From: a virus
Taxonomy: Duplodnaviria; Heunggongvirae; Uroviricota; Caudoviricetes
Length of the DNA: 64,000 bases
Strand: one strand, 5' to 3'
IMG/VR virus record: IMGVR_UViG_2623620505_000001
How positions within the stretch are numbered: position 1 is the first letter of the stretch; every line of letters begins with the position of its first letter. Below, one piece after another: positions 34,949 through 46,863 of this stretch. The position numbers and the translations under genes are program-made. Below the pieces are notes generated by a model, which was not told where the DNA came from, did not search any database, and was given only the letters and a program-made list of their open reading frames with translations.

Positions 34949-35818
34949 TCATTGATTCACCTCCTGCGGCGGTTCCGGTAGAGGCATCCAGTACAAGGCG
35001 TTCCCTAACCACGATAAAGTGCCGTCGCTCAACTCCACGTATTCCCCTTGTACCTGTCCTGCCATATACTCGCCGTGCTTTGAATAAATTAAAATCCAAT
35101 CATCTTGAGCGGGCATTCGCTCACTACAGCTTATCCAACCATCCGGAGTTACCGGAACTTGCGGAATGGCTGTCTGCTCTCGAACGTCATTAGGCGCTAT
35201 AGGTTCTGCTGCCAACTGACTGGCATATTTGTTAATGGTAACGATAAGCTCTTGCTCAGCCTCATCCAGACAATCACCGATACCTCGCCTGTCACCGTCA
35301 AAATCATCGAAATCGGCACGAATCTTGGCAACCTTCTGGATTGCGGACAACACCTCACTAGGAATTACCGGATAGTTGGTTGACGTTTCCGCGATTTCCC
35401 GAAAATTATTGGTTGACGAATTCTTGTTTTCCCGAAAGTTTCCGGACTGAAGCATGGCGGCGCGGCAGGCGTTCCAGCCTCTCACCTCTGCAATAGCGGC
35501 AACAGCATCAACCGCGTACATGCTAAGAGGATTAGGCATTGGTTTTTCTTCCGGTACTACTGGAACGGGGGGAGCGGCGTAGACCTCAATAATTCCATTA
35601 TCAATAGGCCATTCTCCATCCTTGAGGTAGTCACTTGTGCCGTCAACTTGCTGTTCTGCAATGTGGAATGCACCTATTGGTTTTGCTTCCAGCGATGCCA
35701 GAGCAATTCGTGCCAGTTCTTCCGCTTCTTCTGCTGGCAGTACAACGTTGCTATCAGGTCCGTATGTTTCGCGCCACTGCTTGATTGTCAGCAGTCGCTC
35801 TTTGGTAATAGTGATCAT
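34949..35818 (-). CDS. hypothetical protein
   Basis: 289-aa ORF. Confidence 0.5.
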   Translation of the reverse strand: MITITKERLLTIKQWRETYGPDSNVVLPAEEAEELARIALASLEAKPIGAFHIAEQQVDGTSDYLKDGEWPIDNGIIEVYAAPPVPVVPEEKPMPNPLSMYAVDAVAAIAEVRGWNACRAAMLQSGNFRENKNSSTNNFREIAETSTNYPVIPSEVLSAIQKVAKIRADFDDFDGDRRGIGDCLDEAEQELIVTINKYASQLAAEPIAPNDVREQTAIPQVPVTPDGWISCSERMPAQDDWILIYSKHGEYMAGQVQGEYVELSDGTLSWLGNALYWMPLPEPPQEVNQ

Positions 35819-36402
35819 GCCGCGTTTCCTTCTTTCTTATTAACAATTACACCGTCATATATTTCATTAAGGTGCCCTCTCAACTCCATGCGCCTTAATG
35901 CAGATAACATGTAATCGCATTCAACCTGCTTATTCCCAATAAAAGGTTTATCTTCAGGGTTACCCCAACAGCAATTCCCCTTGGGCCATCCATGTACTTT
36001 CCGTACTCTTCCGTTAACAACGTGAAGTAATCCCCAGCCGGGAGGTAAATCCTCAACTGAAATAATTCCCGGCTCACTAATAAAGAATCGCCAGTCGCCC
36101 ATTCCAAGAGATGGATTTTTACGAAAACGCTTTTTTCTATCTGCCAACAAGTCAGCACGAGAACACTTCGCCTCTATCAGGCATGATGCTGAATTTCTGA
36201 ACCCCATAGCATCTGGCTGTTCTCCGGTACTGGTTACAGCTATAAAGCGGTCATGAAAACAAACCTTGAACCCGTTGCGCTTAAGGAACTTATACGCAAT
36301 CTGACAGAGTTCGCGGTGTGTTAACGCCATATCACTCTCCTTTAGTGCGCAAGTGGTTTTTCCAGCGGTTTTGCGCCGCGCTGGGCTTTTTGCAAAAACC
36401 AC
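35815..36402 (-). CDS. putative PD-(D/E)xK-type nuclease
   Basis: 195 aa; D...EAK-like segment PDAMGFRNSASCLIEAKCSRADL; weak call. Confidence 0.4.
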   Translation of the reverse strand: MVFAKSPARRKTAGKTTCALKESDMALTHRELCQIAYKFLKRNGFKVCFHDRFIAVTSTGEQPDAMGFRNSASCLIEAKCSRADLLADRKKRFRKNPSLGMGDWRFFISEPGIISVEDLPPGWGLLHVVNGRVRKVHGWPKGNCCWGNPEDKPFIGNKQVECDYMLSALRRMELRGHLNEIYDGVIVNKKEGNAA

Positions 36403-36520
36403 AATCCATCATCCCGTAATATTTCATCAACCCCATCCGTCGGTTGCTGAGTCTCACCCACTGCCAGACGCCAGGAGCGTTTCTACGAACTAACAGAATC
36501 TTTGCTTTACGGTTTTTCAT
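36332..36520 (-). CDS. small basic protein, MKNRKAK family, copy 2
   Basis: 62 aa; N-terminus MKNRKAKILLVRR; start overlaps the stop of copy 1. Confidence 0.4.
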   Translation of the reverse strand: MKNRKAKILLVRRNAPGVWQWVRLSNRRMGLMKYYGMMDCGFCKKPSAAQNRWKNHLRTKGE

Positions 36521-36693
36521 CTTACAGCGTACCCTTTCTTCCGCCTGTTCTGTGACGCAGTAGGCTTACGCTTTGCGGCAAAAGCCACCTGACCAAATGG
36601 ATGGAGTACCGCTATCTTATGGTTGCTAATAACCAGCTCCACCACACGCACAGGTCGCTGTAAAAAAAGTCGTTTTGCCTTACGGTTTTTCAT
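36517..36693 (-). CDS. small basic protein, MKNRKAK family, copy 1
   Basis: 58 aa by my manual translation (MKNRKAKRLFLQRPVRVVELVISNHKIAVLHPFGQVAFAAKRKPTASQNRRKKGYAVR); below the ORF-track size cutoff. Confidence 0.35.
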   Translation of the reverse strand: MKNRKAKRLFLQRPVRVVELVISNHKIAVLHPFGQVAFAAKRKPTASQNRRKKGYAVR

Positions 36694-36865
36694 CGCTTTG
36701 CTCTCCTGCGTCTCTTTGCTGCTCGTCGTGCCGCTGCAATACCGGTATGGCGGCGCTTTGGTGACGGGATGATGTTGTCAGCCATCAGTACATGTGGCTT
36801 TGCAATTAGCGCAGAAGCCCAAAAACGAGTCGGGTACGGTAACAAGCCGATACATGCCACACGCA

Positions 36866-44953: not shown

Positions 44954-45561
44954 TCTTTAAGAGTCATCTGCGGAATACCTCCCATTTTCCCGCATGAAAC
45001 AACGTCAATCTGTTCACGCGCAGACTGGAATAACAAAGGCAGGTGACTTAGATTTTTTGGCGTGCCGCCGGAGTGAACGCGTAGTTCTTGCGTAGCGTCA
45101 ACGCCCACCAGAGCTACATGTTTGAATCCGATATGGAAAGCCAGGTTCAGAGCACCATATGCACTATTGCCGCTGGCAATTTCATTCTCATCTTCGCAAA
45201 GGCCGAAATGTGCGGACCAGCGCCACGCCCACCACTCGGGAGAATTCGTATTTTTTGGCTCCATGCCGCGTTCAGCCACACGACGGAAGCACAGAACGCC
45301 ATCTCTGACTTCACGTTCTTTAACATCGGGTAGTGCCATGCAATAACAAACACCACGGCGACGGCGGCCACGACCAACGCGCCGCATATTGTCTGGGGAT
45401 GGATCAAGGGTGAAAAAATAAGAAGCGCGGTTAAGCCAGTCGATGGCCCCATTGACCGCTATAATCGGCACTCCGCGCGGCGCAACAAAGTTTGCGGCGC
45501 TTGGGCCACTGCCGACGATAATAACGCGATCACTGCCTCTAAATTTATTCTTGGGAAACAT
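44935..45561 (-). CDS. Rossmann-like protein with VGSGPS motif, paralog A
   Basis: 208 aa; [10 protein letters not shown]...IIAVNGA. Confidence 0.5.
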
Positions 45562-46121
45562 TGAATTGCACTGCTCCTACTTGCATTCAAAATATGTAAA
45601 TCTGCGTGTTTTTTGCGGGTATCCAGGAACTGCTGTTGCCATTTTGAAATAGACACCTGCGTTGGATTCCGTAGTGCTTGAGGGTGCGCGCCATGCCAAT
45701 GAAGGCCGTTTTGCAGAGAACAGTCATAGCCGACTAATACCACTACTTCAGCCCCTGATTCAGCAGCCAGACTGATAGCCTGCGCGCCGCTATTTACCCC
45801 TTCCGCCGGTCCACAATATCGCCTGTACTCCAACGAAAATGATTTCGCCGCCGCCAGGTTGGCTGTCACTTTGCGGAATCTCCCTCCCGGTATGGTGGAT
45901 CCGTATTGCTTCCACCATGACAAATCACCGGCGTATAAGGCATAAATGTCATCGAACATCTGCCAGGAATTGTTAACCGCGATGATTGAACAGCCAGTTT
46001 TTTCTATAGCAGCACAGTCCTCACGAGTGAGTGACGGTCCGCTACCGACACAAAAAACAGTCCTAGTCGCCCTGGGTGGTATGTTCATTCTCAGCTGCAA
46101 ATTCAGCCTCCAGGCGAGCAT
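45459..46121 (-). CDS. Rossmann-like protein with VGSGPS motif, paralog B
   Basis: 220 aa; TVFCVGSGPS...IIAVNNS; true start probably the internal ATG near 46088. Confidence 0.5.
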   Translation of the reverse strand: MLAWRLNLQLRMNIPPRATRTVFCVGSGPSLTREDCAAIEKTGCSIIAVNNSWQMFDDIYALYAGDLSWWKQYGSTIPGGRFRKVTANLAAAKSFSLEYRRYCGPAEGVNSGAQAISLAAESGAEVVVLVGYDCSLQNGLHWHGAHPQALRNPTQVSISKWQQQFLDTRKKHADLHILNASRSSAIQCFPRINLEAVIALLSSAVAQAPQTLLRRAECRL

Positions 46122-46284
46122 TCATTTCAGCGATTACAGGGTCCACTACAGCATCTGTTTCCTGTTCATTACGCGGCATGACCGATGCCAGCGACTCATA
46201 ATTAACCTTGGATGACACGATTATTCTCCCGATGTTAAAGTGCACTACCACAAAGAGCGTACATGCACTAATTAATTTATTATT

Positions 46285-46863
46285 TTAAGCAGCATGCAAC
46301 CACTTATCGCCGTTCAATACATGCTCAATAGCCTCACCCTTTTTAAGACTTATGTATTCCAGGATGGCGGTAATCGCTTGTTCTGCACCGTACGCAAGAA
46401 CGACGTAGTAACCTTCCTCTCTAAGCCTGCGCATCCAGGCGATCTGCTCTTTCGTCGGGGCTTTACCATTTGGTTCTTTAAGCTCAATTCGCATGCCGTG
46501 ATAAATACCGCATGCTTTATCGAGACTCATGTCCGGATAACCTTTTTTCTGCCCTTCAGCCTTCATTTTCCCGGCGGTTGCTTTTGAACGTTTCCCTCCG
46601 TTAGGCGTTGCATGCAACAGCTCATAGATGTCAGGGTGCTTGCGTTCGAAGTAATCAAAAATGAAAACCTGCTCGAAGTGCTCGCAATTTCCGTCGCGCA
46701 GGTCTGGGTTCTTTGCAAGTGCTGCAAGTGCCTTCGCATGTGGAGAAACTTCTTTTACCGGCGCAAGCGATAAGAATGGATCCTTTTTGGTTTTTGGCCT
46801 GGACCGCCCCTTATTTCGACGCTCACTAAAAGCCTGAAACTCTTCCTCAGTAAAGCGCAACAT
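46285..46863 (-). CDS. VRR-NUC-like nuclease domain protein
   Basis: 192 aa; PD-(D/E)xK-type core GYPDMSL...MRIELKEPNGK. Confidence 0.5.
   Translation of the reverse strand: MLRFTEEEFQAFSERRNKGRSRPKTKKDPFLSLAPVKEVSPHAKALAALAKNPDLRDGNCEHFEQVFIFDYFERKHPDIYELLHATPNGGKRSKATAGKMKAEGQKKGYPDMSLDKACGIYHGMRIELKEPNGKAPTKEQIAWMRRLREEGYYVVLAYGAEQAITAILEYISLKKGEAIEHVLNGDKWLHAA

Follow-up and report, generated by a model that had tools for sequence, protein, structure and literature searches.

The interval considered here, positions 35815–46863 of a 64,000-nucleotide tailed-phage sequence (IMG/VR record IMGVR_UViG_2623620505_000001, Caudoviricetes; the whole sequence is referred to below as the window), has all its open reading frames (ORFs) on the minus strand and was described in an initial annotation as an accessory block rich in nucleic-acid and phospho-signalling enzymes. 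This stretch very probably combines the known pmgL–pap genes of a P1-like (IncY-type) phage-plasmid, most of them dispensable, with swapped-in lambdoid exo-xis genes, and so consists of two adjoining pieces that do not form a single system. The region, an ordinary accessory mosaic, contains no new system: one piece is a sequenced, annotated and knockout-tested part of P1 and the other a documented hypervariable region, so that both were already known.

A megablast search with positions 35815–46863 returned Punavirus relatives of P1 as the best phage records, at 98% identity over 57–76% of the query, and a search of a plasmid collection retrieved near-identical IncY phage-plasmids, among them NZ_CP067401, which is 99.3% identical over 99% of positions 32000–47200. 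Positions 40531–52862 of the window align to reference P1 (NC_005856) at 98.7% DNA identity, and positions 28538–32190 correspond to pacA through humD in an alignment to the reference P1 segment. Positions 33529–40531 have no counterpart in reference P1: the alignment halts and restarts at one base (segment position 6001), inside pmgT, and this part of the window shows approximately 97% DNA identity to Stx2c and other lambdoid phages. The statement that this region of P1 holds the pmg and upf genes is thus correct for 40531–47111 but not for 33529–40531, whose lambdoid exo-xis nature had been overlooked. The GC composition profile has no clear foreign signature, the only dip (to 41% GC) being at 33.5–35 kb. 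A scan of 32000–47500 against Rfam at the gathering threshold gave no match, and an NCBIfam search with all 20 proteins matched Ppp only.

The right-hand piece (41420–47111) consists of ten genes whose products share 97.6–100% protein identity with those of reference P1:

46866–47111, minus strand: pmgL, which opens the leftward operon and encodes a putative DksA/TraR-like C4 zinc-finger protein of 81 amino acids (100% identical to P1 PmgL)
46285–46863, minus strand: pmgM, a predicted VRR-NUC (PD..ExK) nuclease (99.5% identical to P1 PmgM)
46063–46218, minus strand: pmgN, 51 amino acids, a member of PHROG_2350, of unknown function (100% identical to P1 PmgN)
45459–46121, minus strand: pmgO, a putative DUF115/MptE-like (Maf-type) transferase-fold protein
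44935–45561, minus strand: pmgP, a second, divergent putative DUF115-like protein, partner of PmgO
44261–44953, minus strand: ppp, a lambda-type PPP-family Ser/Thr(/Tyr) protein phosphatase (98.7% identical to P1 Ppp)
43563–44264, minus strand: pmgQ, a GT-A/GT8-like putative glycosyltransferase with a DLD motif
43263–43481, minus strand: pmgR, an essential head–tail joining factor (100% identical to P1 PmgR)
41999–43261, minus strand: pmgS, a dispensable 420-amino-acid coiled-coil protein (99.5% identical to P1 PmgS)
41420–41926, minus strand: pap, a stand-alone HAD protein of the PNKP 3'-phosphatase type, 168 amino acids, lacking a kinase domain

The pmgL–pap region of P1 (gp085–gp094 of NC_005856) and the upf81.0–pap region of P7 have the same genes in the same order on the same strand with the same C1 operators, and nothing material distinguishes 41420–47111 from its P1 equivalent. 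This piece is conserved P1 backbone (pmgL-pmgM-pmgN-pmgO-pmgP-ppp-pmgQ-pmgR-pmgS-pap), with gene products that presumably act independently. Its regulatory sites were located by matching to the C1 consensus and by comparison with the annotated positions of P1 operators:

47169–47185, plus strand: C1 operator O26/Op82, two mismatches to the consensus, in the divergent promoter region between pmgL and gene 26, at its annotated P1 position
46262–46278, plus strand: C1 operator Oppp/Op83, identical to the annotated P1 operator
43545–43561 and 43496–43512: paired C1 operators OpmgRa/b (Op86), two consensus matches over the pmgR promoter, at P1-annotated positions
41404–41420, minus strand: C1 operator OpmgT/Op88, two mismatches to the consensus, upstream of pmgT and the exo-xis cassette, annotated in P1
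41951–41979, minus strand: terminator-like hairpin between pmgS and pap, an 11-bp stem followed by a T-run (consensus scan only)

Because these five C1 operators occupy their P1 positions, the genes of 41420–47111 can be assigned, following the P1 annotation, to C1-repressed operons. Promoters that overlap the operators would keep this piece silent in the lysogen and turn it on at derepression.

That most of these genes are accessory is already established by the literature, with pmgR as the exception. According to the table of Piya et al. (PMC10695390), which draws on deletion or CRISPR interference (CRISPRi), the non-essential genes include pmgL, pmgM, pmgO, pmgP, ppp, pmgQ, pmgS, pap and pmgT/U/V. 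The data for pmgN are discordant, its deletion being non-essential and its CRISPRi knock-down essential (PMC10695390, PMC9024508). Deletion of pmgR leaves unjoined heads and tails, as documented by the knockout phenotype and its complementation (PMC9024508). The earlier suggestion of accessory functions more than morphogenesis thus agrees with the published plaquing data for the P1 genes that were deleted or knocked down, except for pmgR, which is essential for head–tail joining.

The left-hand piece comprises 33529–40531 together with pmgT and a long form of pmgU:

40497–41225, minus strand: pmgT, intact 242-amino-acid form, whose first 231 residues match P1 PmgT; the PHROG_874 profile is covered to the C-terminus
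33529–40531, minus strand: lambdoid exo-xis-type cassette of 7.0 kb, absent from reference P1, between intact pmgT and long pmgU
39337–39981, minus strand: 214-amino-acid homolog of P7 Upf87.6 with a Cys-rich C-terminus (PHROG_2457, unknown function, 3.5e-119); its GTG start is set by an upstream Shine-Dalgarno sequence and GTGA overlap
38474–39349, minus strand: Ead/Ea22-like protein, 291 amino acids (Pfam Ead_Ea22, PF13935, 4e-19, 70 bits against a 27-bit threshold)
38187–38477, minus strand: DUF4752 protein, 96 amino acids from a GTG start (Pfam DUF4752, 2.4e-42)
37456–38190, minus strand: Ea22-related coiled-coil protein, 244 amino acids (PHROG_368, 1.9e-75, a PHROG common to its Ea22-like neighbours)
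36866–37459, minus strand: Ead/Ea22-like protein with a portable C-terminal mini-domain of about 75 residues (Pfam Ead_Ea22, 6.9e-28, 98.4 bits against a 27-bit threshold)
35815–36330, minus strand: 171-amino-acid PD-(D/E)xK nuclease-fold protein, distantly related to DUF1052
34949–35818, minus strand: DUF551 (EaA-like) protein, adjoining the left edge of the interval (Pfam DUF551, 5.6e-11)
33148–33798, minus strand: long PmgU, intact at 216 amino acids, its C-terminal half corresponding to P1 PmgU (translation comparison)

Li et al. (PMC9603915) list eight hypervariable regions in P1-like phage-plasmids, of which region 8 runs from pmgT to humD, and describe pmgR and pmgS as extremely conserved. 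The left-hand piece lies in this region 8, filled here by a cassette probably exchanged with lambdoid prophages; foreign genes are swapped in at the same location in JL22, P7, RCS47, SJ46 and many plasmids. Compared with these relatives, the window carries a full exo-xis-type cassette without the PAPS-reductase gene of the closest plasmid. The order of genes is that of Shigella phage Ss-VASD, where DUF551, hypothetical, Ea22-like, two small ORFs and PAPS reductase lie between exo/bet/gam and int/xis. In contrast to the lambdoid exo-xis (ea22) region, which is expressed from lambda pL, the module here is embedded in the P1 backbone, apparently downstream of the C1-controlled pmgT promoter. Ea22 proteins are laid out as an N-terminal region, a coiled coil and a variable C-terminal domain, and all three Ea22-type proteins of the window lack the C-terminal domain of lambda Ea22. 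Other ORFs of the cassette belong to PHROGs of unknown function. The P7 annotation notes Upf87.6 as a tyrosine phosphatase, whereas no CX5R motif was seen in the sequence of its homolog at 39337.

Several smaller features of this piece were recorded. Both NZ_CP067401 (locus L003, 8932–9804) and Ss-VASD have a PAPS-reductase-family gene between a 67-amino-acid ORF and pmgT, where the window keeps only an 84-nucleotide gap (40413–40497). Three small tandem ORFs of 58–62 amino acids (36332–36866) separate the nuclease gene from the Ea22-like gene; two of them start with MKNRKAK, and a 21-nucleotide direct repeat is found at the starts (36501, 36674). Toward humD, P1 lxr is absent and hot, encoding a homolog of the theta subunit, is 85% identical to P1 in DNA and 86% in protein (32190–32512), in a flanking backbone of approximately 98% identity. 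A 116-amino-acid ORF on the plus strand (32545–32895), hypothetical in NZ_CP067401, runs against the otherwise leftward variable region.

A tail that ends in QLRKGGNQ and a stop codon is encoded at the ends of several cassette genes (37456–37480, 38474–38500, 39978–40000 and also 36866–36890). The underlying DNA reads AAGGAGG and then a GTGA stop/start overlap. This implies that translation of successive genes is coupled, and it fixes where each following gene truly begins. This "conserved tail" thus appears to be simply the ribosome-binding site and coupled start of the gene that follows. It is possibly also a recombination junction between modules.

The pmgT and pmgU genes at the borders of the cassette bear on the history of P1 itself. 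P1 PmgT (309 amino acids) consists of the first 231 residues of the window PmgT fused out of frame into the pmgU region, and the reference P1 pmgU encodes 111 amino acids from a GTG start, with a 196-nucleotide overlap (reference segment 5626–6695). Among 48 P1-like IMG/VR loci with pmgT, the junction of reference P1 was found in one, that of the window in eight, and a PAPS-reductase gene at this place in three. Judged from these reading frames, pmgT and pmgU of reference P1 are most likely remnants of a deletion of approximately 7 kb. As for the function of PmgT, an N-terminal ILEGRKTQTRR motif, recognized by eye, and a weak PDB match to ASC-1 (E 0.84) hint at an ASCH-like protein. Single-sequence PDB searches with PmgT, PmgO and the 35815 ORF were uninformative.

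All six ORFs singled out in the initial annotation are present on the minus strand with the ends it had given them, and most of its assignments hold. The product of 44261–44953, which it had called a lambda-type Ser/Thr phosphatase, is indeed Ppp, with matches to Pfam Metallophos (9e-16, 59.3 bits against a 21.5-bit threshold) and to a NinI-like PHROG (5e-113) and with the motifs GDLHG, GDLIDRG and GNHE in its translation. Its match to the PrpA-type NCBIfam model (3.3e-81, 272.5 bits) falls under the 326-bit equivalog cut-off, and Ppp is therefore not an ortholog of PrpA/B. In other phages, ppp is absent between the homologs of pmgP and pmgQ.

The HAD phosphatase proposed at 41420 proved to be Pap. 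Its DIDGT motif occupies residues 19–23, and it matches Pfam HAD_PNKP (7.8e-12, 46 bits against a 27.6-bit threshold), the polynucleotide kinase PHROG (3.3e-57) and, in PDB, the phosphatase domain of Pnkp1 (1.2e-3). No kinase match was found in Pfam or PHROG that would make Pap a bifunctional enzyme of the T4 Pnk type; the HAD domain accounts for the whole protein. Pap is thus predicted to be a polynucleotide-type 3'-phosphatase that may take part in end healing.

In the C4 zinc-finger protein recognized at 46866, PmgL, the four cysteines have the pattern CxxC-x9-CxxxC, a spacing unlike that of TraR. PmgL matches the "DksA-like zinc-finger" PHROG_54 over its full length (1.6e-12) and has no match to Pfam zf-dskA_traR. 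It may bind in the secondary channel of RNA polymerase. If any gene here serves host takeover, this putative DksA/TraR-like factor is the strongest candidate.

The adjacent PmgM had been described as a VRR-NUC-like nuclease, which is supported by a phmmer match to the PDB VRR-NUC protein 4qbl over the nuclease core with its PD..ExK motif (3.5e-17), although the score against Pfam VRR_NUC (PF08774), 21.3 bits, is under the 23.8-bit threshold. Unlike stand-alone phage VRR-NUC resolvases such as 4qbl, PmgM has an N-terminal extension of about 75 amino acids. It also matches the "Holliday junction resolvase" PHROG_5702 (4.8e-27), and PmgM is probably a junction resolvase. It is more simply read as the resolvase of the phage itself than as an anti-defence or host-takeover factor. 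It would resolve branched DNA left by replication and recombination ahead of headful packaging, a task in which host resolvases could replace it. For PmgS, Pfam, NCBIfam and PADLOC searches returned only coiled-coil noise.

The putative PD-(D/E)xK nuclease at 35815, in the exo-xis cassette, has both the restriction-endonuclease-like alpha-beta-beta-beta-alpha-beta core fold and the catalytic D...(D/E)xK residues. Across 30 homologs, the most distant at 59% identity, D40, E53 and K55 vary little or not at all, and they align with the motif of 3dnx, a DUF1052 structure listed within the PD-(D/E)XK superfamily (PMC3424549). There was no Pfam match at E <= 0.1, the DUF1052 (PF06319) threshold was not reached, and a profile comparison with the 3dnx sequence gave E 0.24. 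We regard the protein as a predicted nuclease and a structural relative only of DUF1052. DUF1052 is mostly alphaproteobacterial, whereas the family of the 35815 protein is enterobacterial and phage-borne and has extra C-terminal helices.

For the 36866 product, labelled a P-loop protein, the Walker-A motif is real and conserved but the label of P-loop NTPase is not justified. The protein belongs to the Ea22 family, is 100% identical to a common Escherichia coli prophage protein (the homolog search returned near-identical E. coli sequences only), and its best NTPase matches have E-values of 0.02–0.3 and extend over beta1, Walker A and alpha1 only. The Walker-A string, GFTGCGKS, lies in the C-terminal module (residues 108–197, window 36866–37138), which is far smaller than any canonical NTPase and does not make up a complete alpha/beta NTPase domain with Walker B. 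This module of about 75 residues recurs in 443 representative proteins of 110–623 amino acids, always at the N- or C-terminus and 72–88 residues long, and GxTGxGKS is retained in 147 of 150. It is covered by no Pfam family in the copy used. Searched against PDB, its profile gave nothing significant, the sub-significant matches being beta1–Walker A–alpha1 segments of UvrA, gluconate kinase, ArsA and APS kinase. Judged from the sequence, its elements may be ordered as beta1, Walker A, alpha1, beta2, loop, alpha2 and beta3, the last with an hhhhE string. We consider it rather unlikely, if worth stating, that these residues form a natural self-contained mini P-loop domain, mobile between phage exo-xis proteins, that would bind nucleotide only when the coiled coil gathers several copies.

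Taken over the whole interval, "rich in nucleic-acid and phospho-signalling enzymes" is an overstatement, as the label fits four of about 22 genes. Of the others, three are glycosyltransferase-like, one is an essential morphogenesis gene, and the rest encode Ea22-type coiled-coil proteins or are small ORFs.

The glycosyltransferase-like nature of pmgO, pmgP and pmgQ had been overlooked. PmgO appears closest to Maf flagellin glycosyltransferases of the DUF115 (MptE-like) type and to GT42 sialyltransferases; at about 200 amino acids it has the core domain only, and the fold is common also to pyrophosphokinases. Its own score against Pfam MptE-like (PF01973) is under the threshold. PmgP, which appears to be a divergent paralog of PmgO, matches MptE-like at 3.4e-4 and PHROG_4603 at 1.8e-5. 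A natural PmgO::PmgP fusion of 376 amino acids (P0291; locus L006, 6001–7131), encoded on an unrelated metagenomic phage contig, exceeds the MptE-like threshold (44.6 versus 34.6 bits) through its PmgP half. On that contig, genes for a PmgQ homolog and for a fourth protein, nucleotide-sugar-transferase-like, come after the fusion gene. PmgQ matches the "glycosyltransferase" PHROG_1962 (2.5e-128).

Homologs of PmgO, PmgP and PmgQ stand side by side in this order, with no ppp among them, in two unrelated backgrounds, a lambdoid prophage of the Citrobacter type and the unrelated phage contig, in the latter as the fusion. The three are candidates for a phage-borne glycosylation module in which the DUF115/Maf-type pair PmgO/PmgP and the GT8-like PmgQ would transfer sugars to either virion proteins or the lipopolysaccharide (LPS) core. 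The neighbourhood of PmgO-family genes was surveyed in 80 diverse IMG/VR loci. PmgP and PmgQ were both missing from 75 loci, and two had PmgO with PmgQ. A universal pmgO-pmgP-pmgQ cassette was rejected, the usual partners of PmgO being a GT9-like protein and a methyltransferase. In 64–65 loci, the PmgO-like gene is followed by genes for a GT9 (heptosyltransferase)-like protein and an S-adenosylmethionine-dependent methyltransferase, between lysis genes and HNH/terminase (for example, L138 684–1592 and L118 5590–6207). This looks like a widespread three-gene cassette of viral contigs, of which we know of no description.

Several points weigh against the interpretation of the interval as a P1 accessory set joined to an exo-xis cassette, with the gene functions given above. 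The operons are taken as annotated in P1, and the biochemical roles, pmgR apart, are all predictions. The GT8 matches of PmgQ are weak (PDB 6mw5, E 0.086; Pfam Glyco_transf_8, E 0.31, for a homolog), so that it is a GT8-like candidate, and the complete PmgO-PmgP-PmgQ trio is rare, being found in one of the 80 diverse PmgO-family loci. Finally, the choice of a deletion in P1 over an insertion here was made by parsimony, from intact versus fused reading frames.

The region could instead be a dedicated anti-defence or host-takeover island, in which Pap heals RNA ends cut by anticodon nucleases, Ppp reverses phosphorylation by defence kinases, the nucleases attack host or competitor DNA, and the glycosyltransferases mask targets. 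T4 Pnk, which like Pap falls in the PNKP phosphatase family, counters PrrC; Pap has no kinase domain, however, and no ligase partner is present. Early, C1-controlled expression and the dispensability of the genes in K-12, a defence-poor host, would fit such a role. The left half does lie in a hypervariable region exchanged between phages, but the exo-xis members that have been studied modulate the choice between lysis and lysogeny and not immunity (PMC7093339, PMC10834534), and the right half ranks with the best-conserved stretches of P1-like genomes, unlike typical anti-defence loci with their fast turnover. PADLOC, which catalogues defence and not anti-defence systems, revealed no homology to catalogued systems; its hits to LmuB, PglZ and PD-Lambda-4 (E 1e-4 to 4e-3) amount to coiled-coil noise. 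Among 29 P1 knockouts constructed by Gonzales et al. (PMC9024508), the 24 viable mutants had unchanged anti-restriction activity, and our search for functional literature on pmgO, pmgP, pmgQ, pmgM, pmgL or anti-defence roles found nothing beyond essentiality screens. On balance, a dedicated island of this kind appears improbable.

We also consider it quite unlikely that the genes are morphogenetic, as their first annotation implied ("pmg"; "hdm" and "sht" in P7), and build or decorate the virion, for example by glycosylation of head or tail proteins. The head–tail joining function of pmgR is of this kind, in P1 a late promoter (LPpmgL) lies ahead of the operon, and most PmgO-family genes lie between lysis and terminase genes; in one JGI contig, such a gene is found inside the head/connector module, beside genes for collagen-like and head-completion proteins. 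Yet 11 of the 12 P1 genes here give normal plaques upon deletion or knock-down, and a nuclease, two phosphatases and a DksA-like factor are non-structural protein types. In the main text and tables of the P1 virion proteome paper (PMC9024508), PmgS, PmgM, PmgQ, Ppp and PmgL are unmentioned.

Remodelling of the LPS core, the P1 receptor, by pmgO, pmgP and pmgQ during lytic growth, which would block superinfection or adsorption of progeny to debris, is very unlikely: its LPS-core-flavoured relatives (GT8-like PmgQ, the GT9 heptosyltransferase-like partners of PmgO, and a faint precomputed WaaZ_KDO_III match on the PmgO::PmgP fusion) and the ready supply of CMP-Kdo, a ulosonic-acid donor present in all E. 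coli, stand against matches that are all weak or faint, enzymes of the GT8, GT9 and Maf types that glycosylate proteins too, expression upon derepression only, which leaves little time to alter surface LPS, and the lack of any reported phenotype.

With the interval read as conserved P1 backbone next to an exchanged exo-xis cassette, little changes apart from the by-products, which are better annotations of "putative morphogenetic" or "hypothetical" genes for work on the accessory genes of P1 and Stx phages. The predicted Maf/DUF115 fold of PmgO and the natural PmgO::PmgP fusion are an improvement of this kind, as is the recognition that the lambdoid exo–xis region encodes a predicted DUF1052-like PD-(D/E)xK nuclease. 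The evidence that the pmgT and pmgU reading frames of P1 are deletion remnants provides a useful re-annotation. The widespread 75-residue Walker-A module on Ea22-type proteins and the PmgO/P/Q candidates for sugar transfer are leads worth following.

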